From a virus, in IMG/VR virus record IMGVR_UViG_3300025133_000069, positions 12,430-76,429 of that record: a stretch of DNA of 64,000 nt; one strand, 5' to 3'. The notes below the pieces were generated by a model. That model saw only the letters and a program-made list of their open reading frames with translations. It did not search any database and was not told the origin of the DNA. Numbering within the stretch: the stretch's first letter is position 1; every line of letters starts with the position of its first letter. The position numbers and the translations under genes were made by a program. Shown in pieces: positions 9,917-34,006 of the stretch.

Positions 9917-11812
9917 ATGAAAAAAATAGCGCTAGCTTTTATGATATTTACTTTTTTGCAAATCGGTTGCAGCAATGTAGAACAAGGAGCTGGTTCTAAT
10001 GATTTAGATGTTGCGGAAGATATCTCTGAAGATGTACACAAAGAAGAAATAGTTATTGTACCTTGGGAAGAAGAGGAACCCGAACCAGATCCAGAATGTA
10101 TTGACTGTGCAATGTATTTCTGTCCTCCATTAGATGCAATTTGGAGAAAAGAAATATGCATGAATATATGCGATGATCCTCCTACACTTTACTCTGAATC
10201 TGAATGCATACAATATATGGAGTGTGATCCAACGCAATATCTTATTGACGAAGTTGAATGTATGACTGAAGATGGATATCCTGGTACCCAAGAAAAGGTT
10301 TGTAATAAAGGGTTAATACAATATACAGACTGTACTACTGCCTGTGAAGAAGAGTTGTGTAATTATGAAGACGACGACTGTGACGGTGAGATTGACGAAG
10401 GACAATTAAACGACTGTAACGAATGTGGGATTGTTCCTACAGAAGAATGTAATGGCGTCGATGATAATTGTGATGGGGATACAGACGAAGATTTAATTCA
10501 ACCCTGCATCACAGCATGCGGTGCGGGATATGAAATGTGTTATGAGGGCAATTGGATATCTTGTACGGCGCCGCCGGAGAGTGATGAGATATGTGATGGC
10601 TTGGACAATGATTGTGATGGTCAAATAGACGAAAACTTAGATTGTGTATGTACCATACAAGATATTGGAGTGTTGTTTCCATGTCAAGATGATCCTCTTA
10701 TATGTGGTCAAGGATATAAAACTTGTCAGTGTTTAGACCCTGATTGTATAGATCTTGTAATGACAGAATGTTATGCTTTGTGTTACTGGGCGCCTTCTGG
10801 CGATCCAAACGCTGTTTGTGACCCACTGATTGGTATGGAATTAGCACAGGAAAAATGTAATAATTTTGATGATAATTGTAATCAAGAGATTGATGAAGAT
10901 CTTTATGGCGCTTGCTACACAGGGCCAGAAGGCACCCTTATGGTTGGTATTTGTGTTCCTGGAGAGATGACTTGTGATGCTGGGACTTGGGGAAATTATG
11001 ATGAGGAAAATTTTATTCCATATTATTGTAAAGATGAAATAGTACCTCAAGATGAAATATGTAATGGATTAGATGATGATTGTGACGGTATAGCAGACTG
11101 GGGTGAAGAGATGAAAGAGACCGATGTCCTCTTCATCGTTGATTGGTCTGGATCGATGGGTGATGAGATGAGCGCTGTTATGATAGCATTAAATCAGTTT
11201 GCACAAAATTTCAGCGATGAGGATGTTATTAAGTGGGCATTTATGCGGGGCCCAGTGGCCGTGTTACCTTCAACTTATGATGAACGTTTGGAGCTAATAC
11301 AAGATTTAATTGGATTTTCTGATTATTTAGTTTCATTAGCTGGAATGGATACCAGCATGCAATCAATGAGTACTGCTTACGAGATGTTATTGGACGCGAT
11401 TTATATATCAGTCCATAATATAACAGCTACGTTACCACAACCTATCTCCAATTTTGTTTGGCCCGGGGCAGCTAACTTTGGTACAAGTGTAATTGAATCG
11501 GAGCCTCCATTACAAAATTTCGATATCAGTTGGCGTTCGGGGGCTGATCGCATCATCATTGTTTTTAGTGACGAAGTACCGCAAAGTTATTTAGAACCAA
11601 ATTTAAGTATAGAAGAAGTCAAAACAGCTGTTTCCGGGACACCTCAACTTAAATTATTTACATTTTCTAGGACGTCCGGGTCGTCCCAGTGGGAAGATAT
11701 AGCTGTTGCCGGCAATGGCGCTTGGTACAAACTTACAAATAATCCTACAGAAATGTATGCTAGCTTAATGGAAATTCTTGATGAAATATGTAAAGGTGAT
11801 ACAAATGAATAA
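9917..11812 (+). CDS. lipoprotein with MopE-related Cys/Asp repeats and C-terminal vWA domain
   Basis: Lipobox LQIGC; repeats ELCNYEDDDCDGEIDE, EECNGVDDNCDGDTDE, EICDGLDNDCDGQIDE, EKCNNFDDNCNQEIDE, EICNGLDDDCDG; MIDAS motif DWSGSM and later FSDE. Likely start is the ATG at 9917 (track gives 9902). Confidence 0.85.
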   Translation: MKKIALAFMIFTFLQIGCSNVEQGAGSNDLDVAEDISEDVHKEEIVIVPWEEEEPEPDPECIDCAMYFCPPLDAIWRKEICMNICDDPPTLYSESECIQYMECDPTQYLIDEVECMTEDGYPGTQEKVCNKGLIQYTDCTTACEEELCNYEDDDCDGEIDEGQLNDCNECGIVPTEECNGVDDNCDGDTDEDLIQPCITACGAGYEMCYEGNWISCTAPPESDEICDGLDNDCDGQIDENLDCVCTIQDIGVLFPCQDDPLICGQGYKTCQCLDPDCIDLVMTECYALCYWAPSGDPNAVCDPLIGMELAQEKCNNFDDNCNQEIDEDLYGACYTGPEGTLMVGICVPGEMTCDAGTWGNYDEENFIPYYCKDEIVPQDEICNGLDDDCDGIADWGEEMKETDVLFIVDWSGSMGDEMSAVMIALNQFAQNFSDEDVIKWAFMRGPVAVLPSTYDERLELIQDLIGFSDYLVSLAGMDTSMQSMSTAYEMLLDAIYISVHNITATLPQPISNFVWPGAANFGTSVIESEPPLQNFDISWRSGADRIIIVFSDEVPQSYLEPNLSIEEVKTAVSGTPQLKLFTFSRTSGSSQWEDIAVAGNGAWYKLTNNPTEMYASLMEILDEICKGDTNE

Positions 11813-12032
11813 AGTTGATGAATTAGAAGAAGAGATTGAAAAATTAGAAGAGTTAATAACAAAAGCTAAAAAAGAAAACGCAGAGCTTAAAGATGAGGTC
11901 GATTCGCTTTGGTCAATGATGGATGAAATAACAAAATCTGATATTGAAAATTTTTCTCATATTCTAGAAGATCTGAAAGCTGATATTATTACAAAGACGC
12001 TGATGATAACAAAGAAAGTAGCAGACTGTTAA
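11805..12032 (+). CDS. small coiled-coil hypothetical protein
   Basis: AAGGTG RBS, ATG at 11805; heptad-like E/K/L pattern. Confidence 0.7.
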   Translation: MNKVDELEEEIEKLEELITKAKKENAELKDEVDSLWSMMDEITKSDIENFSHILEDLKADIITKTLMITKKVADC

Positions 12033-21869: not shown

Positions 21870-24728
21870 ATGGGCGGTTCAGCTGGACATATGGCGCATC
21901 CCTTTGATTGCCGCGAGGTAAGAAATGGTCAAGATTTAATCAATTTTTATATAAAAGCGATTAGTAATATACCTCTTTATCAAGGAGAGATGTCTCGTGA
22001 TGATTGGTTAGCTGATTTTGGTGGTGTTAACCCTTCTTCAGTTAAATTTGATGGGGTTAATGCCTCTTTTCGTCTTGAAAAGACTAACACTCCTGCAGGG
22101 TTCATGTTTGTGCACGATCGTGGCGCGGCAAGTGACAAATCTGATGTTGGAAAAATAGATTATAAGGGTATCACCTCTGATAATGCTCACGAGCGGTTTC
22201 CAAGTAAGCCTTTTGAACCAGAAACGAACGAACAAGGCGAACAAGTTTGTCCAGAAGATGCTGAAATTGTTAACGTTGATGGAAAAATGATGTGTTCAAA
22301 ACAACACGGCATGATTCATGTTGTGGAGATAATGTCTAAGATATTAAACCATGATTTAATGAAAGTCAAACCCTATATTGAAGCGCTTGGTATATTTGAG
22401 AATGGTATCGGGCCCGAAGGTGTTACTTTTAATGCAGAGTTTTATTCAAATGAGGATCCGGAAAAAGATATTAAATCAATTAAAAATGTAACTGATTACA
22501 ACCAAAATTTTATTGCTATTCACAATTTACAAGATTTTCACACTGAAGAGAAGGTTTCAGCAAGAGGGAAAGTGGCTACTAGCCGTAAAACTAGAGGGTA
22601 TTATTGGCAAACGCAAGAAGAATTACAGCAATTATTTGATCAGAAAGATCAACTGCAAGCTCAAAGACAAGATACAGTTGAAATTGATACACTAATAGGT
22701 GAAAAAAACCAAGATCTTTATAGAAGACAAAATGAACACCAAGAAATTATCAATAAGTTCGCCGAAGCTTTAGCAGATAACGCAAATGCTTTGGATCTTC
22801 CGTTTAACGTACATACACAAGTTGGTTTACAATTCAAAGAAGGTTTAACAAGAGAAATCGTTATTAGAAGAATTGAAGAAGCTCTAGAAACTAAAGTTCC
22901 TTACAATTATGAGAAAATAGATGATAATACAAGTATAGGCCCCACTGCAATTAATGAACAAACTAATGAAGTAGAGCCTAGAAAATTAGGGGATCTTTTA
23001 TTGCAGATAAAAGAAAATCCGGCGCATGCGGCATATTTTCCTGATGAGTTTAAAAAAACTAAAAAAGACGGTACACGAAAACCAGAATTAGCGGCTATTA
23101 AGGTAAGTTCAGACTTTAGTAAACGACATGCGAGTCCATCAGGCAAATTATTAAACACCAAACAAAGTGCTTTTGCAGTAAAACTCTATACGGATATTAT
23201 AGTTGATGGACCACATACTGGCATCGGAGTCGGAGATGTTGCTGGAGATGCAGATAAGAGTTTTGAAGCAATTAACAGTGCGGTAATATTATGGCATGCA
23301 GTAAGATTACTTGGCAATGTTTTAAAAGAGTCTGTTTTATCTAAAGTCGACTTTGGATTGCCAATGTCAGAACAAGAAGGAATTGTTATACAATCAGAAA
23401 AAATGTGTGATGGGATTCCATTTAAGTTTACAGGTGAATTTATTGTTCAAGGCCGAGAATCTCCACATAGAAAAGATGCACCTCCACAAATAAATGAAGT
23501 TAAATTAAAATATGGTGAGTTATTAGAAAGATTTGTAGTTGAGCAAGAAGATGTTCCTGCTGAAGAAAAACGAACACAGTACGTAGTTCTCGTTCCAGGT
23601 GGTTTTAAACCTCCAACTGGTGGCCATTATTCAATGATTCGACAATATGAAGAGAGACCAGACGTCGCAAAAGTGATTGTTGTTACTGGGTTTAAACCCA
23701 GAACAGGTCAAGGCATGACTATTACTTATCAACAAAGTAAAGCTATTTTTGATTTATATGGTGGTTTTGGAGATAAAGTAGAATTTAGAGATCAGGGGCC
23801 ATGGCCGACGCCAATGAGAACTTGTTATGAGCTTATGAATGATGAAAGATTTATATCTGAATTCCACGGTGCAGTTTTTGCTTTAGGCGCTAGCGACAAA
23901 GATGATGACGAAGCAAGAATTGGTGAATTTGCAAATTATTTTCAAAACAATCCAACGAAAACCGGTGTGCAAGTTGCTAGCGCAGGTCCCGCTAAAGCTC
24001 TCGAAGTACGTGGAGAGGCAGCTAGTGCTTCCCGTATGAGAAAAGCCTTTATTGAAGGAGATTGGGAACTTTTTAAGGAACTATTACCAGATGATAATTT
24101 TTATGATGACGTCGTCCAAATTTTGAATGGCCAGGTAACAAATATTGTACTCGGCCAAGGGGAGGAACAAGTGAATGAAAATTTTTTTTCAGCGGACTCC
24201 CTATTTTCTCTGGTTGATGATGTCTTATTAGAATATGCATGTAAGAGCGGTAAAAAGTGGACAGTATGTAGTCATGAAACCAAAAAGGTAATTCCAACAG
24301 CAGGCAAATTTTCTTCTAAGGGAGCCGCAAAAAAAAGAGCTGCGCAAATGCATGCACATTCTAATCAAGAAAGCTTAAAACAAAAAGAAAAGAACGTTAT
24401 ACTTACCGAAAGGGAAGATGAGGCACTTAACGTTATGTTAAACAAGATGGTCCAAGACGCTTTAAAAAATAAAACAATAACTAATTTACCTGAATTCATT
24501 AAAAGCCTTACAGGAGACGCTGTTGAAGCGGTATTAGCTCAATTTCAAAATATCGCACCAGAAGAAGTAACAGGAACAGAAGAACCAACAGTTGTAAGTC
24601 AGATAGCAGAAGAAGAACCATTAGAAGAAATATCAGCCATGGGCGCAGGTGGCGCTGGTGGGGGTGCTGTTGAAGGCGCCGGGGGAGGATGGATTAATGA
24701 CAAAAAAAGAATTAATGCAGGAATTTAA
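21870..24728 (+). CDS. large-phage MGGxAGHMxHPFD (DUF6267-like) protein fused to a cytidylyltransferase-like (HIGH) domain
   Basis: N-terminal MGGSAGHMAHPFD, SVKFDG, EGIVI...FKFTGEF; PGGFKPPTGGH and SASRMRK motifs. Confidence 0.7.
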   Translation: MGGSAGHMAHPFDCREVRNGQDLINFYIKAISNIPLYQGEMSRDDWLADFGGVNPSSVKFDGVNASFRLEKTNTPAGFMFVHDRGAASDKSDVGKIDYKGITSDNAHERFPSKPFEPETNEQGEQVCPEDAEIVNVDGKMMCSKQHGMIHVVEIMSKILNHDLMKVKPYIEALGIFENGIGPEGVTFNAEFYSNEDPEKDIKSIKNVTDYNQNFIAIHNLQDFHTEEKVSARGKVATSRKTRGYYWQTQEELQQLFDQKDQLQAQRQDTVEIDTLIGEKNQDLYRRQNEHQEIINKFAEALADNANALDLPFNVHTQVGLQFKEGLTREIVIRRIEEALETKVPYNYEKIDDNTSIGPTAINEQTNEVEPRKLGDLLLQIKENPAHAAYFPDEFKKTKKDGTRKPELAAIKVSSDFSKRHASPSGKLLNTKQSAFAVKLYTDIIVDGPHTGIGVGDVAGDADKSFEAINSAVILWHAVRLLGNVLKESVLSKVDFGLPMSEQEGIVIQSEKMCDGIPFKFTGEFIVQGRESPHRKDAPPQINEVKLKYGELLERFVVEQEDVPAEEKRTQYVVLVPGGFKPPTGGHYSMIRQYEERPDVAKVIVVTGFKPRTGQGMTITYQQSKAIFDLYGGFGDKVEFRDQGPWPTPMRTCYELMNDERFISEFHGAVFALGASDKDDDEARIGEFANYFQNNPTKTGVQVASAGPAKALEVRGEAASASRMRKAFIEGDWELFKELLPDDNFYDDVVQILNGQVTNIVLGQGEEQVNENFFSADSLFSLVDDVLLEYACKSGKKWTVCSHETKKVIPTAGKFSSKGAAKKRAAQMHAHSNQESLKQKEKNVILTEREDEALNVMLNKMVQDALKNKTITNLPEFIKSLTGDAVEAVLAQFQNIAPEEVTGTEEPTVVSQIAEEEPLEEISAMGAGGAGGGAVEGAGGGWINDKKRINAGI

Positions 24729-25614: not shown

Positions 25615-26094
25615 ATGTTAACTTTCTTATCCTATGTTTCTGCTATAGTTTGTGCAATCTTATATTCCAATATAGTAGAATGGCTGGCGCATAAGCATTT
25701 TTTGCATGGCTTTGGCAAAAGCAAAAGTAGCATATGGTCTTTTCATTGGCACCAACATCATAAAAAAGCAAGAAAAAATGATTTCTATGATGAAGATTAT
25801 TTAGATGGATGGGTTGGTGCACCTTTAAGAGAGAAAATTGGATTGTTTTCTTTACTGGTCCTTCATTCTCCTTTACTTTTTACAGCACCTGTATTTTATA
25901 TAACTTTGGTTCTATGTTCTATTAGATACTATAGAATTCATAAATATGCTCATTTATTTCCTAGTTGGGGAAAAGTTTATTTAAGATGTCATTATGATCA
26001 CCATATGGGTAAAAATCAAGATGCCAATTGGGGCGTTACAACAAGTTGGGTTGATAAATTACTTGGCACGAGAATAGAATATGTGGGAGAGTAA
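25615..26094 (+). CDS. fatty-acid hydroxylase/sterol desaturase superfamily membrane protein
   Basis: His boxes HKHFLH, HWHQHH, HKYAH, HYDHH and NWGV; hydrophobic helices. Confidence 0.8.
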   Translation: MLTFLSYVSAIVCAILYSNIVEWLAHKHFLHGFGKSKSSIWSFHWHQHHKKARKNDFYDEDYLDGWVGAPLREKIGLFSLLVLHSPLLFTAPVFYITLVLCSIRYYRIHKYAHLFPSWGKVYLRCHYDHHMGKNQDANWGVTTSWVDKLLGTRIEYVGE

Positions 26095-26443
26095 AAGAAG
26101 CAGATTTAAGAGGCCTGATCATGATTATTATAGTATTGCAAATAAACTGAAAGCTGAAGGCAAAATCAATGAAAAATTTGAAATTATGCTTTCATCTCTT
26201 ACTTTAGAAGAAATAATAGGTCTGAGATTGGAGCTAGCTGCTAAGTCTGTTAATTATAAGCTTTATGGCTTAAATATTTGGAGTTCTGTTCCAAATATGG
26301 TACGAGATGGTATATTAAAATATGTGTATTCTGCAGCTCGTACAAAAGGAGAAATGGCTAGTTTTTTGGGTATAGATAAAAATACACTCAAAAGATTGCT
26401 CAAGAAATATGATATTACTAATTATTTTAGTAAAGAGGGGTAA
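26081..26443 (+). CDS. protein with C-terminal Fis-like helix-turn-helix
   Basis: TKGEMASFLGIDKNTLKRLLKKY. Confidence 0.65.
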   Translation: MWESKRSRFKRPDHDYYSIANKLKAEGKINEKFEIMLSSLTLEEIIGLRLELAAKSVNYKLYGLNIWSSVPNMVRDGILKYVYSAARTKGEMASFLGIDKNTLKRLLKKYDITNYFSKEG

Positions 26444-26447
26444 TTTC

Positions 26448-27146
26448 ATGAAAATAACAAAATCACAATTAAAACAAATTATTAAAGAAGAACTGAAAAG
26501 TGTTTTAAGTGAACAATTGCCACGTCGCTCGGCTGAGCGCCGGCGACAAGACCGCGAGAAGTTTAAAAAGTGTCTTAAGACTTTCAATCCTGAAAAAGAA
26601 GGTACTAATTTTTCGTATGAAAATATAGCTTTAAATCTTAAAATGGCTTTAATCCTTAATGATCTTAGAACATCGACGAACAGCGGAAAATCTCTCAAAA
26701 AATGGAAAATTGATCCGTTAATAAGTTTAAATCCCGGGCATGTTGAAGAAATTAAAGAACGTTATATAGAAATGCGTTGTCAGGATCCTGATCAGAGTCC
26801 TGCTAGAGTTCGAAGAAGGGCTGGTGCAATTGGTGGCGATAGTAGCTTTTTTAGGGACCAGAGCAGTGGCCTGGGTGCTGGCGTGCGGCGATTTCATAAG
26901 GGCCCGCTGTCGCGCGGGTCCATAACTAATATTTTTGATGGTTTTGGGGATCCCGGCGGATATTCGCCTTTGAGAGATGAGCTTAACGATCTTCTAGAAA
27001 AAACAGGTGCATGGAAAAAAATGCGCATGGATGACCCTGTACGTAAACAATATAAAAATTGGATTCAAACAAGATTAGGGCGATGTGAAAAGGGGGGTGG
27101 AAAAACCCTCCCAGATGGTAGTTGTTCGAAAGATGTAGTGCATTAA
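26448..27146 (+). CDS. leader-tagged cassette protein 1 (MKITKSQLKQIIKEEL)
   Basis: ACTAATTATT at 26417 and GAGGGG RBS put the start at 26448, not 26409. Confidence 0.85.
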   Translation: MKITKSQLKQIIKEELKSVLSEQLPRRSAERRRQDREKFKKCLKTFNPEKEGTNFSYENIALNLKMALILNDLRTSTNSGKSLKKWKIDPLISLNPGHVEEIKERYIEMRCQDPDQSPARVRRRAGAIGGDSSFFRDQSSGLGAGVRRFHKGPLSRGSITNIFDGFGDPGGYSPLRDELNDLLEKTGAWKKMRMDDPVRKQYKNWIQTRLGRCEKGGGKTLPDGSCSKDVVH

Positions 27147-27162
27147 CAATGGAGGTGAACTA

Positions 27163-27525
27163 ATGAAAATCACAAAATCACAATTAAAACAAATTATTAA
27201 AGAAGAGCTGGAAAGTGTTAAGATACACGAGCGGAAGGCGAAAGCAGGAGAGGAATACGGTGACTTCGTCGTCGTCAAAACAGTCGACGGGGGTACAGCC
27301 GCGGTCCGCAAGGATGTTTATAAATATTTTGGCCCTATTTCTACTATACTTCCGACTGACACGCTTATGAATGCTTTAGAACAGGCTATGAAAAAAAATA
27401 ATATTCCTTTAGATATCGTCGGTTCCGGGGTTGGTAGAATAGGTGCGGACTCGGGCGGCAGATTCACGTTTAAATTTAGTGTAGATCTCGAACCTGCCAA
27501 ACTGCCGGCCCCAGAAGAAAAATAA
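27163..27525 (+). CDS. leader-tagged cassette protein 2
   Basis: GGAGGT RBS; leader near-identical in DNA to 26448 and 27545. Confidence 0.85.
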   Translation: MKITKSQLKQIIKEELESVKIHERKAKAGEEYGDFVVVKTVDGGTAAVRKDVYKYFGPISTILPTDTLMNALEQAMKKNNIPLDIVGSGVGRIGADSGGRFTFKFSVDLEPAKLPAPEEK

Positions 27526-27544
27526 ACAATACGGGGATAAACTA

Positions 27545-27799
27545 ATGAAAATCACAAAATCACAATTAAAACAAATTATTAAAGAAGAGATGGAAAGTGT
27601 CTTAAAAGAACAAGAGGTGCTGCGAGGGGCGAGAATAACGAAGAAGAAACAAGACGGGGACTATTGGATTGTAACTGTGTGTCTAAGAGACACTTGTGCA
27701 GAAGGAAAAGCAAAAGGAGCTACTACCAGCATCGCGATCCGCGCGGCCGAGCAGAAGGCCCGGACTAATTTGTTAAAGAAACTAAAGGGAAATGACTAA
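27545..27799 (+). CDS. leader-tagged cassette protein 3
   Basis: Leader near-identical in DNA to 27163; unrelated body. Confidence 0.85.
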   Translation: MKITKSQLKQIIKEEMESVLKEQEVLRGARITKKKQDGDYWIVTVCLRDTCAEGKAKGATTSIAIRAAEQKARTNLLKKLKGND

Positions 27800-27802
27800 T
27801 AC

Positions 27803-28151
27803 GGGGGTGAACTGGTATCGACTGAGTATTGAAAATATAACGTGCAAGGCTGTGATGAGTGAAGGCACAGCATAAAACACTCAAAATTTAAACGCCAACG
27901 ATAACGTTGAGTTTGATTACGCCCTAGCGGCGTAGTCATGGGGAATGACGAGAGCCTTATTAACCAAAGACTGTTCATCGATGGTTTTCTTCGGAAAGTA
28001 GATGTAAGAGGGTTTTTCCAAGTTAGGCCCATAGGATAAACTTGGTGGTGCGCGGTGCGAGTTTGTCAGAGTTCATAAACTGACTAACCTTGTGAATGAC
28101 GTTGTATTAGAAATATTCAGGACCCGGGTTCGACTCCCGGCACCTCCACCA
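27803..28151 (+). ncRNA. ssrA: tmRNA, tag peptide (A)ANDNVEFDYALAA encoded at 27894-27935
   Basis: 5' GGGGGTG pairs with 3' CACCTCC-ACCA with a G3:U alanine wobble; T-arm CCGGG-TTCGACT-CCCGG; tag ORF ends in ALAA-stop. Confidence 0.95.
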
Positions 28152-29255
28152 ACTATTTAATAATATGCAGAAACTATTTGAAAATTGGCGGAGATTCGTA
28201 GAAGAAGACAATAAAGCTTTAGAATCTAAAATACGCGCGGCATTAGCTGAAGAAGGCGGCGCTGCTGATATGGAAACATTGAAAGAGTATACTGGAGCGA
28301 CCGAGGAAGAAATCAAATCTGCCATGGGGGATTGGGAGGGCATAGAAGAGCATCCGGGATCGTCTGACTTTAGAAAAAATATTTTATTAGAAGGCCAACG
28401 CGAAAATCTTCCAGAATGGTTTAAAGAGTGGCTTGGGGATTTTCTAGAAAAAGATTTAGATGCACCTGGCGCGAAAGAATATTTTCGTAATAGGTCGGCA
28501 CCTATGCCGCCGGCGACGGATCTTGAAGGATATCGTGGAAGAGGAGGAGGCTTCCCCGCGCGATGGGACCGACCGCCGATTCCGCCGATCCACGCGAGTA
28601 GCACGGGCCGGCAGGCGCCGCATTTGGATCTGCAGGGCCGGCCAAAGGCGCCGGGCGAGCAGAGGTGGCGGCGATGGGCTGACCGAGCGCTCGGGCTTCC
28701 ACCTCATCCTGAACCTGTCGCCGGTGCTGGCCATCGCGCAGTGCCTGCTAGCCGGCGAGAGCTTCGATCTGCGCACAACAAGAACAAAAGTAGATTAGTA
28801 AATGATATTAGAAGAGAAGCCACGATTATAGAAAAAGCTGTTCCAAGACGTCCCGGGGCCTTTAAACAATTTTTGCAAAAAGCTAGGAATATTCCATTTT
28901 TAGGTAATTTTTTCAAACTTGCACTTCTTGGGTATGTAGGTACTGATATTCTAACTAGAGCTGATAATGCGTATGCTAGCCAGGGAGTAATAGGAGTATC
29001 TAAAACTATAGCAGAAGAAAGTCTTTTATTTTTACCTAGCTATATAGAAATAAGCTTAATAGCTTCTGCGTTGGAAGAGGCATTCCCAGATATTGTGTTC
29101 CCAGGAAAATGGAAACGTGATAAATATTGGAAGTCTTCAAAATATGATGTTGAAGATTATCCCGGTGGATCAGAAGAAGAAACACCTGAAGAAGACGTGG
29201 GGCCTCTACCAGATGTATAATAGAGATAACGTGACACCAACTATTTATTAATATG
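28147..29255 (+). repeat. 21-bp direct repeat CACCAACTATTTA(A/T)TAATATG at 28147 and 29235
   Basis: One mismatch; comprises the tmRNA 3' CACCA, the promoter motif and an ATG. Confidence 0.8.
28165..29220 (+). CDS. leader-tagged hypothetical protein with GC-rich central patch and hydrophobic C-terminal helices
   Basis: Leader MQKLFENWRRFVEE; EEGGAA motif; GC-rich ~28490-28775; IPFLGNFFKLALLGYVG. Confidence 0.8.
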   Translation: MQKLFENWRRFVEEDNKALESKIRAALAEEGGAADMETLKEYTGATEEEIKSAMGDWEGIEEHPGSSDFRKNILLEGQRENLPEWFKEWLGDFLEKDLDAPGAKEYFRNRSAPMPPATDLEGYRGRGGGFPARWDRPPIPPIHASSTGRQAPHLDLQGRPKAPGEQRWRRWADRALGLPPHPEPVAGAGHRAVPASRRELRSAHNKNKSRLVNDIRREATIIEKAVPRRPGAFKQFLQKARNIPFLGNFFKLALLGYVGTDILTRADNAYASQGVIGVSKTIAEESLLFLPSYIEISLIASALEEAFPDIVFPGKWKRDKYWKSSKYDVEDYPGGSEEETPEEDVGPLPDV

Positions 29256-32831: not shown

Positions 32832-32907
32832 TGGCCCGTAGCTCAGAGGTTAGAGCACCATTCTTATAAAGTGGGAGTCCCGGGTTCAAGTCCCGGCGGG
32901 CCGACCA
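32832..32907 (+). tRNA. tRNA-Ile (anticodon UAU)
   Basis: Cloverleaf with D-arm TAGCTCAG..GG, anticodon arm CCATT-CTTATAA-AGTGG, T-loop TTCAAGT and encoded CCA. Confidence 0.9.
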
Positions 32908-32923: not shown

Positions 32924-33940
32924 ATGATTGCAGATATTGTTGTTGGATTACAGCATGGAGACGAAGCAAAAGGAAAAGTGACTCACCATCTTTGTTCAGA
33001 AGGTGGCTATACACATGTATTGAGATTTAATGGCGGTGGAAATGCTGGCCATACCATTTATCATAATGGTCGCAAGTTTGTAACACACTATATTCCAGCA
33101 GGTGTTTTTTATGGTATTAAAAGCATTATTGGAAGTGGATGTGTATTAAATATTCAGCATTTCTTCGAAGAGGTAGAAGAACTAAGAAAAGCAGATATTG
33201 ATACATCTTTAATTAAAATAGCTAAAAATTGTCATATTATTACCAGTGATCATCTAAGTGAAGACAATAAAGATAAAAAAATTGGTACAACAAAAAGAGG
33301 CAATGGACCAGCTTATCGTAACAAATACAATCGTACAGGTTATCAAGCAAAAGATACTGTTGAATTACAACCATTTTTGATCGATCTTTATGACGAATTT
33401 TTTAATAATGAAAACGAGGTTAAGATCTTATGTGAGGGTGCTCAGGGATTTGAGCTTGATATTGATTGGGGTGACTATCCATATGTTACTTCTAGTCATT
33501 GTACATCTGCCAGCGCGCTGTTGAACAGTATCCCCGCATCTGCAGTTAGAAATATTTGGGGTGTTGGAAAAGTATATGATACATATGTGGGAACAAAACA
33601 TTTTGAGCCAAATGATGATGTATTCAATAAAATTAGAGAAGTTGGCGAAGAATATGGAGCAACGACCGGCCGTAACCGACAATGCAACTGGTTGGATATT
33701 AATCGACTGATTAAATCTATTAATATTAATGGTATTACCCACTTGGTGTTGAACAAGGTTGATGTATTAGAAAAAATTGGTGTTCATGCTTTATATGATC
33801 AGGAGAGGACACTTAAATTTAATGACGGCGCCGACATGCGGGCCTATATTTTAGGGCGCTTAGAGACACCAGATCTTCTTAGCGAATTACAAGAAGTATA
33901 TTTTTCTGGTAATAAAAATAACTTAAACATGCCCTCTTAG
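32924..33940 (+). CDS. purA: adenylosuccinate synthetase (short type)
   Basis: GDEAKGK, RFNGGGNAGHT, GTTKRGNGPAY, EGAQG, YPYVTSS, GATTGRNR, NKVD. Confidence 0.95.
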   Translation: MIADIVVGLQHGDEAKGKVTHHLCSEGGYTHVLRFNGGGNAGHTIYHNGRKFVTHYIPAGVFYGIKSIIGSGCVLNIQHFFEEVEELRKADIDTSLIKIAKNCHIITSDHLSEDNKDKKIGTTKRGNGPAYRNKYNRTGYQAKDTVELQPFLIDLYDEFFNNENEVKILCEGAQGFELDIDWGDYPYVTSSHCTSASALLNSIPASAVRNIWGVGKVYDTYVGTKHFEPNDDVFNKIREVGEEYGATTGRNRQCNWLDINRLIKSININGITHLVLNKVDVLEKIGVHALYDQERTLKFNDGADMRAYILGRLETPDLLSELQEVYFSGNKNNLNMPS

Positions 33941-34006
33941 CTCAGTTGGTAGAGCATCGGACTCTTAATCCGCAGGTCGTAGGTTCGATCCCTACAGGGG
34001 GTACCA
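33931..34006 (+). tRNA. tRNA-Lys (anticodon CUU)
   Basis: GCCCTCT/AGGGGGT acceptor stem, anticodon loop CT-CTT-AA, GGTTCGATCC T-arm, CCA end. Confidence 0.9.

Follow-up and report, generated by a model that had tools for sequence, protein, structure and literature searches.

Directly upstream of the tmRNA gene of a marine, T4-like phage, we found an array of small leader-bearing genes in which two of the intergenic spacers closely resemble the 5' junction of the tmRNA itself. The homology of these two spacers, which precede cassettes 2 and 3, to that junction is established, and we consider it probable that they are worn copies of it and that the modules to which they belong are shuffled by homologous recombination. 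The evidence supports viewing the locus as a case of the repeat-mediated cassette shuffling known in T4-like phages, with a new element: a fragment of the tmRNA 5' end acts as the repeat and as the ribosome site, the recombination route and the Shine-Dalgarno (SD) function being inferred.

A cassette array upstream of the tmRNA gene

The stretch of DNA analysed here (the window, 64,000 nt) lies inside a 76.4-kb IMG/VR virus record (G000) that is 42% complete according to CheckV; all of the genomes compared are partial metagenome assemblies. Three co-oriented cassettes lie directly upstream of the tmRNA gene (Table 1). They are identical at 35 nt and in their first 15 aa, and their bodies are mutually unrelated; comparison of these bodies with Pfam, PHROGs and PDB sequences gave nothing significant. 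The possibility that cassette 3 is a tandem duplicate of cassette 2 was ruled out, since the bodies and 3' ends of the two are unrelated. Cassette 1 has no tmRNA-like spacer before it; its ribosome site, GAGGGG, is ordinary and falls within the last part of the anchor gene.

Table 1. Coordinates of the array, its borders and its spacers in the window
Feature	Position	Strand	Remarks
Anchor gene, 120 aa, conserved	26081..26443	+	Left border of the variable array
Cassette 1, leader-A ORF, 232 aa	26448..27146	+	
Spacer J2, decayed copy of the tmRNA 5' junction (probable)	27147..27162	+	27151-27161 equivalent to tmRNA nt 1-11; blastn homology to L102
Cassette 2, leader-A ORF, 120 aa	27163..27525	+	
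Spacer J3, decayed copy of the tmRNA 5' junction (probable)	27526..27544	+	27528-27543 identical to the junction at 14/16; blastn homology to L102
Cassette 3, leader-A ORF, 84 aa	27545..27799	+	
Genuine junction	27798..27813	+	Last bases of the cassette-3 stop codon, TAC, tmRNA nt 1-11
One-piece phage tmRNA gene	27803..28151	+	ARAGORN; Rfam RF00023; right border of the array
First leader-B ORF	28165..29220	+	Starts 13 nt past the tmRNA CCA end, behind a conserved AT-rich box

The two borders of the array are well defined. On the right, the tmRNA matches the Rfam model over its full length (model positions 1-374; 120.9 bits, the gathering score being 47), is predicted by ARAGORN to encode a 13-residue tag peptide that ends in ALAA, and is 98-99% identical to the tmRNAs of the relatives L100 and L102 (99% in the case of L102). 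On the left, homologs of the anchor gene stand directly left of an array or of the tmRNA in L100, L101, L102, L103, L104, L011 and L013, and the L102 homolog shares ~80% DNA identity with that of the window.

Several features of the surroundings were also recorded. The AT-rich box, directly 3' of the tmRNA CCA (28152-28167), is conserved and is also present in L004, L106 and L009, and the ATG of the leader-B gene behind it has no Shine-Dalgarno sequence. Another leader-B gene, at window position -1319 (outside the window, in G000), has an upstream string near-identical to that of the AT-rich-box gene. Two genes upstream of the array, at 25615-26094, we found a membrane protein of the fatty-acid-hydroxylase family (PF04116, E 3e-10), which is present in L102 and not in L013. 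Phage tRNA genes for Ile(TAT) (32832-32907) and Lys(CTT) (33931-34006) lie downstream of the tmRNA region.

Similarity of the spacers to the tmRNA 5' junction

A preliminary description of this DNA had pointed to the likeness between the spacers and the tmRNA start, and the strings that it quoted are present at the positions it gave. Its two alignments also hold: 14 of the 16 aligned bases of J3 agree with the junction, and J2 aligns over 27148-27161 with a 2-nt gap, its tmRNA-equivalent part agreeing at 10 of 11 positions. When aligned without a gap, J2 matches the tmRNA junction at 12 of 16 positions; it lacks the AC that precedes G1 of the tmRNA, these two bases having been lost.

From base composition alone, a match of at least 14 of 16 has a probability of 1.9e-7 per site, which amounts to 0.024 expected matches over both strands of the window; for the motif GGNGGTGAACT the expectation is 0.04, and three occurrences were counted. 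The third match to GGNGGTGAACT, which reads GGTGGTGAACT and lies at 1431-1441 on the minus strand, overlaps the end of a lipoprotein-like ORF. It adjoins a leader-A gene without being in a start context, and we judged it to be coincidental.

Because ribosome sites are G-rich, we also built an empirical null from 554 unique SD-bearing start contexts, taken from ~95 loci of related phages. J3 (14 matches) and J2 (12) were the top two of the 554, with the remainder reaching 11 at most, and they were again the top two among 199 leader-A gene contexts. The likeness between spacers and junction is real, and chance is excluded by both nulls and also by relatives, since L102 and L106 have intact copies of this junction, in an identical register and ahead of the same leader. 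The same outlier ranks, in both sets, rule out a generic ribosome-site context. The earlier inference would have been refuted had the spacer turned up as a generic context ahead of leader genes elsewhere, and this was not the case: other leader genes, in this genome and in relatives, have ordinary AGGAG-type contexts. Judged by its sequence, the junction at 27798-27813 is the source from which both spacers derive.

We were not able to find a match to the locus in the INPHARED phage collection using blastn, and IMG/VR scans with spacer-plus-leader patterns and with the junction 14-mer yielded no further fragment-bearing arrays. The output of these scans consisted of look-alike ribosome sites in the unrelated L019, L020 and L191, ~80 chance matches, and tmRNAs that were already known. 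Arrays that bear the fragment were found only in the window, in L102, in L106 and, in a decayed form, in L004.

Junction copies in related phages

The same 20-nt tmRNA start is present on 15 IMG/VR contigs, and the sequence downstream of it places 12 of them in the same tmRNA family; L006, L008 and L016 have differing tmRNAs despite the shared start. AC precedes tmRNA G1 in 11 of 13 cases of the family, regardless of the upstream gene, so we count the flank of the junction as part of the tmRNA unit. Seven contigs were retrieved when metagenomes were scanned with the 25-nt junction of the window.

The metagenome contig L102 is syntenic with the window and has homologs of the genes at 21870, 24697, 25615 and 26081 at ~80% DNA identity. 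Between its anchor gene and its tmRNA there are ten leader cassettes, and each of the seven nearest to the tmRNA is preceded by a near-intact copy of the tmRNA 5' junction, extending to tmRNA nt 11, 12, 20 or 21. Counting the genuine tmRNA along with these seven, L102 has eight copies of tmRNA nt 1-11 or longer. In L106, the array of which was read only partly, one cassette is enclosed between 20-nt direct repeats, each made of six flank bases and tmRNA nt 1-14, and the GTG start codon of this cassette consists of tmRNA nt 13-14 and one further base.

In blastn comparisons, the homology of the window to the L102 modules begins exactly at 27528 and 27151 and continues into the leader. Between the two genomes, the identity of the modules is 85-94%, as compared to only ~80% for the flanking genes. 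When window positions 26081-27802 were compared with L102, synonymous sites in the leaders were also found to be conserved, which suggests either exchange or selection at the DNA level.

It had been proposed in the preliminary description that alleles with an empty site be sought in relatives, and such alleles do occur. In the window and in L009/L105, the cassette-3 3' end is followed by TAATAC and then by the tmRNA. L102 has the same cassette-3 end and TAATAC, and then tmRNA nt 1-11, a 92-codon leader-A ORF, a stop codon and the full tmRNA. Empty (window, L009) and filled (L102) sites differ by 291 nt, bounded by an 11-nt direct repeat; this last L102 repeat is without flank bases. The 3' half of cassette 3 is seen again, together with its 3' flank, in L009/L105 and L102, and the flank accompanies the junction in three genomes. 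For L009, only 103 nt of sequence are available upstream of the tmRNA.

The number of cassettes between the two anchors varies widely, from 0 (L011, L013, L103) through 1 (L100), 3 (window) and 4 (L101) to 10 (L102). In the arrays of L100, L101, L104, L007 and L018 leader cassettes shuffle without any tmRNA fragment, and the fragment is therefore not required for array variation. In several relatives that have no leader cassettes, tiny ORFs with runs of at least 5 cysteines (CCCCCGCC-like) are located immediately upstream of the tmRNA, at ~1590-1790 in L013 (oriented) and at 7183-7305 in L104, and also in L010 and L103.

A homolog of the cassette-3 body occurs in L102 (oriented) at 11264-11842, with 61% identity over 57 aa; there it follows leader B and has an extra N-terminal part of ~110 aa. 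Leaders and bodies are therefore exchanged independently.

The tmRNA of L009, the closest relative, is altered at its other end: within L009:9950-11760, read on the minus strand, the tmRNA ends in a different version of its last ~40 nt, and an endonuclease ORF of 182 aa (11640-11092) comes next. One leader-B gene is joined to a displaced copy of the old 3' end, and a second leader-B gene is preceded by the third copy of this end; the 3' junction of the tmRNA has therefore been duplicated too.

An assembly artefact was ruled out as the origin of the copies, since each junction is shorter than a sequencing read and three independent assemblies contain them. The order of the cassettes within the repeat-rich L102 could nevertheless be misassembled.

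Register of the copies and possible role in translation

The copies fall into two types. In those of type 1, which share a single register, the start codon falls where tmRNA nt 13-15 would be. To this type belong J2 and J3 in the window, four copies in L102 and a fifth with a 2-nt insertion (before ORF 9716), the L106 copy, and a decayed copy before L004:5550. Over 19 nt, the L106 copy does not differ from the junction; the type 1 copies of L102 mainly show G>A at nt 12 and/or 13, making ATG. All four differences of J3 in the 19-nt register are G>A, including G5>A and G7>A; in J2, G3>A gives GGAGG; and six of the seven differences in the L004 copy are transitions. Such a pattern is as expected if a single founding fusion was followed by adaptation as a ribosome site.

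Type 2 comprises two copies, both in L102, in which tmRNA nt 1-20 stands directly before the ATG, in one case that of a leader-A variant and in the other that of a leader-B gene. Their G-run is 16 nt from the start codon, too far for a Shine-Dalgarno sequence, and SD function therefore cannot explain all of the copies. The existence of both types also means that at least two founding joins are needed.

J2 and J3 lie ahead of cassettes 2 and 3 at a distance of 7 nt from the ATG, where a ribosome-binding site would be expected. With this spacing, with RNA that is unstructured and with G>A changes towards GGAGG and ATG, a Shine-Dalgarno role for the two spacers is plausible, by inference. We could detect no stable RNA structure in the spacer-plus-leader sequences, which fold worse than shuffled sequences (z +2.1 and +0.5). 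No terminator-like site was found between the cassettes, nor between the cassettes and the tmRNA, and promoter-like matches were not located in the spacers as a unit.

Leaders and probable cargo role

The leaders of types A and B head many other ORFs of the window's genome. Using tblastn with cassette 3 against IMG/VR we confirmed 249 relatives and kept 79 loci, with most matches spanning only the first 20-30 residues. Both leaders end in hydrophobic-x-E (I/L/F-x-E; the comparison with the T4 motif was made by eye), as do the CTS propeptides of T4 (PMC9026906). The T4 CTS directs unrelated internal proteins into the head and is then cleaved off (PMC9026906). By analogy, the leaders look like the capsid-targeting propeptides of T4. 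A prohead protease of the T4 gp21 family (PF03420) was found in the relatives G002, G004 and G005, with E values of 1e-33 to 1e-35, and was not found in the window's 42%-complete record. The cassettes probably encode virion-packaged cargo proteins with T4 CTS-like propeptides, where the cargo role, the packaging and the cleavage are all inferred.

Proposed mechanism and alternatives

The preliminary description had advised a search for a recombinase elsewhere in the genome. We were able to find no integrase or resolvase in the available sequence: the tyrosine recombinase family PF00589 was not detected in G000 or in the relatives G001-G005 (six records of 76-158 kb, all incomplete, the 158-kb record being 87% complete), and the serine recombinase family PF00239 was not detected in G000, itself an incomplete record; a recombinase could still be encoded in the missing parts of these genomes. 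The fragment-bearing arrays have the most uniform leader DNA: per 48 nt, the leaders of the window show 2.0 differences and those of L102 6.1, compared to 6 to 11 in other arrays (8.7 to 11 in those with at least three leaders). We favour shuffling driven by homology because no recombinase was found in the sequence available and there is no structure or terminator, because the arrays hold 0-10 cassettes, and because of the identity of the modules and the uniformity of the leaders.

In the mechanism that we propose, each spacer would derive from ~5 flanking bases and tmRNA nt 1-14. The founding event would be one illegitimate join at 1-2 nt of microhomology, fusing the junction to the start codon of a leader-A ORF, so that the start codon stands in place of tmRNA nt 13-15. 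This would have given rise to a module of ~70 nt, consisting of the junction fragment and leader-coding DNA, which would now stand ahead of many cassettes. Such a module shares 16-20 nt with the tmRNA 5' end and at least 50 nt with every other leader, and ordinary recombination can therefore act on it. Phage homologous recombination or unequal crossing-over would then add, delete or swap cassettes. The partners would be two modules, or one module and the tmRNA gene, located in sister or co-infecting genomes, and the long homology of the tmRNA gene could resolve the other side of the exchange. Each event would leave a fragment of the tmRNA start as a scar. The G-run of this fragment would pair with the anti-Shine-Dalgarno sequence as it pairs with the 3' strand of the tmRNA, and for this reason could serve as a ribosome-binding site, which would then drift by G>A towards GGAGG and ATG.

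The preliminary description had inferred that the cassettes were inserted one after another at the tmRNA 5' end. One part of this stands: the spacers are duplicated junctions that arose where cassettes join the 5' end of the tmRNA, as is evident from the seven copies in L102, the 20-nt repeat in L106 and the 291-nt empty/filled pair. That the cassettes were added in succession, and beside the tmRNA each time, is not shown by the data. Loss by deletion between repeats would explain them just as well as insertion, so the polarity is unresolved, and an ordered accretion cannot be read from the data, since the window and L102 share only cassette 3. It should also be noted that efficient homologous recombination would call for longer stretches than the 11-20 nt shared here. 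We infer that small genes are gained and lost by recombination at the tmRNA 5' end.

The similarity could alternatively reflect convergence or chance, as a strong SD, GGAGGTGA, and the tmRNA acceptor strand, GGGGGTGA, both pair with CACCUCC. This accounts for a match core of 7-8 nt, and similar SD-plus-spacer strings do precede unrelated genes in the unrelated L019, L020 and L191. However, the match reaches the AC and AATAC flank as well as nt 9-14, it is an outlier among the 554 contexts, and in L102 and L106 the identity with the tmRNA junction extends over 16-26 nt, with 20 nt among them that are incapable of SD function; we regard this explanation as already refuted, with hardly any likelihood left to it. 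It is also conceivable that the fragment is a functional RNA element, such as a processing or factor-binding site or a translation enhancer, which was spread by selection and is not a scar of recombination. The (almost) perfect conservation of the seven L102 copies, next to cassette bodies that are unrelated, would agree with this. RNase P or SmpB needs a tRNA-like fold, but the 11-20 nt copied have none and the region is unstructured; the window and L004 copies decay freely at several positions, and most arrays do without the fragment. We therefore give such an element very little credence.

As an account of the founding or insertion events, repair of double-strand breaks has to be taken seriously, although we consider it unlikely. 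Here, a homing-type endonuclease would cut the tmRNA, and repair would copy a leader cassette from an ectopic or co-infecting template, starting by microhomology near tmRNA nt 11-21 and ending by annealing in the tmRNA, so that the tmRNA start is duplicated. L009 does have an endonuclease ORF (phrog_3322, E 8e-25; weaker matches to HNH families) at the 3' end of its tmRNA, whose T-arm and acceptor 3' strand are replaced and whose old 3'-end copies are displaced before two leader-B genes, and with types 1 and 2 at least two break points can be told apart. It is the 3' end of the tmRNA, however, and not the 5' end at which that endonuclease sits; a search of the window's 76-kb record for HNH genes was negative, and most copies are in one register, for which one founding event suffices. 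Site-specific capture resembling that of integrons, in which a dedicated recombinase uses the junction as an attachment site and inserts circular cassettes beside the tmRNA, would account for near-identical repeats of ~16-20 nt flanking single-gene cassettes of one orientation beside a fixed anchor. We hold it to be distinctly less credible, as neither PF00589 (in the window's record and five relatives) nor PF00239 (in the window's record) was found, no hairpin forms at the sites, the copies do not all end at the same point on the right (nt 11-14 in some, 20-21 in others), and the last L102 repeat is without flank bases. A related speculation is that the phage keeps a dedicated cassette-acquisition locus on its own tmRNA, with the junction as a reusable docking site for an unidentified nuclease or recombinase, or for programmed repair. 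Leader-tagged cargo genes from co-infecting phages would be stacked there translation-ready, in an integron-like builder of an arsenal of virion-delivered proteins; this we think improbable.

Discussion

The gain and loss of the numerous small ORFan genes of large phages is poorly understood beyond the PeSL elements, and this locus offers scars that can be read at the level of single bases. Under the homology-driven shuffling that we prefer, a conserved RNA gene would supply the docking homology, and the scar would be reused as a ribosome-binding site. The decay series may represent a rare step-by-step origin of an SD sequence and a start codon from an RNA gene, from a GTG made of tmRNA bases to ATG and then to GGAGG. 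If the tags are capsid-targeting, the array may be a fast-evolving set of proteins that is injected with the DNA, with a bearing on phage-host arms races.

Several known systems resemble parts of this locus. Like integron arrays, it consists of one-gene, promoterless, co-oriented cassettes with repeated sites and a fixed anchor; unlike them, it has no intI beside the array and no attC hairpin, and the repeat ends vary. In Islander islands, displaced fragments of tRNA or tmRNA genes mark integrated genomic islands (PMC4383910). As in these, an intact tmRNA gene and a displaced partial copy occur at the two ends of the insert, and tandem arrays can build up. Those islands, however, are kilobases in size, carry a tyrosine integrase and reside in cellular chromosomes, whereas here it is the 5' end that is duplicated, the units are single genes of 0.3-0.8 kb, and the genome is that of a lytic-type phage. 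No integrase lies inside the unit, each unit being a single ORF of 83-262 aa without a family match.

The resemblance to the internal proteins of T4 concerns the products. In both cases unrelated small proteins share a short N-terminal propeptide, which in T4 ends at a prohead-protease site and here, judged from its motif alone, may do so, and the set is poorly conserved between related phages (PMC9026906); a shared propeptide on unrelated bodies is indeed what the array shows. The leader sequences are, however, unrelated to the T4 CTS, and the genes for the T4 internal proteins are not linked by tmRNA fragments.

The PeSLs of T4-type phages, which combine an early promoter with a stem-loop terminator and undergo repeat-mediated shuffling (Arbiol et al. 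2010, PMC2839356; Comeau et al. 2014, PMC4122927), also share features with this locus. Their promoter is sigma-70-like, and circular excision products (mini-circles) are known (PMC2839356, PMC4122927). The promoter and stem-loop terminator have no counterpart at our locus, where there is no hairpin and no clear promoter. In both systems short conserved intergenic repeats surround small, mostly ORFan genes in hyperplastic regions of T4-like genomes, and the repeats bound insertions, deletions and replacements between close relatives without a dedicated recombinase; here, this is met by the 291-nt indel with its 11-nt repeat, by the 20-nt repeat of L106 and by the 0-10 cassettes between the anchors. 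Unlike in a PeSL, the repeat is a fragment of the tmRNA gene fused to leader-coding sequence, and an intact RNA gene anchors one side of the array.
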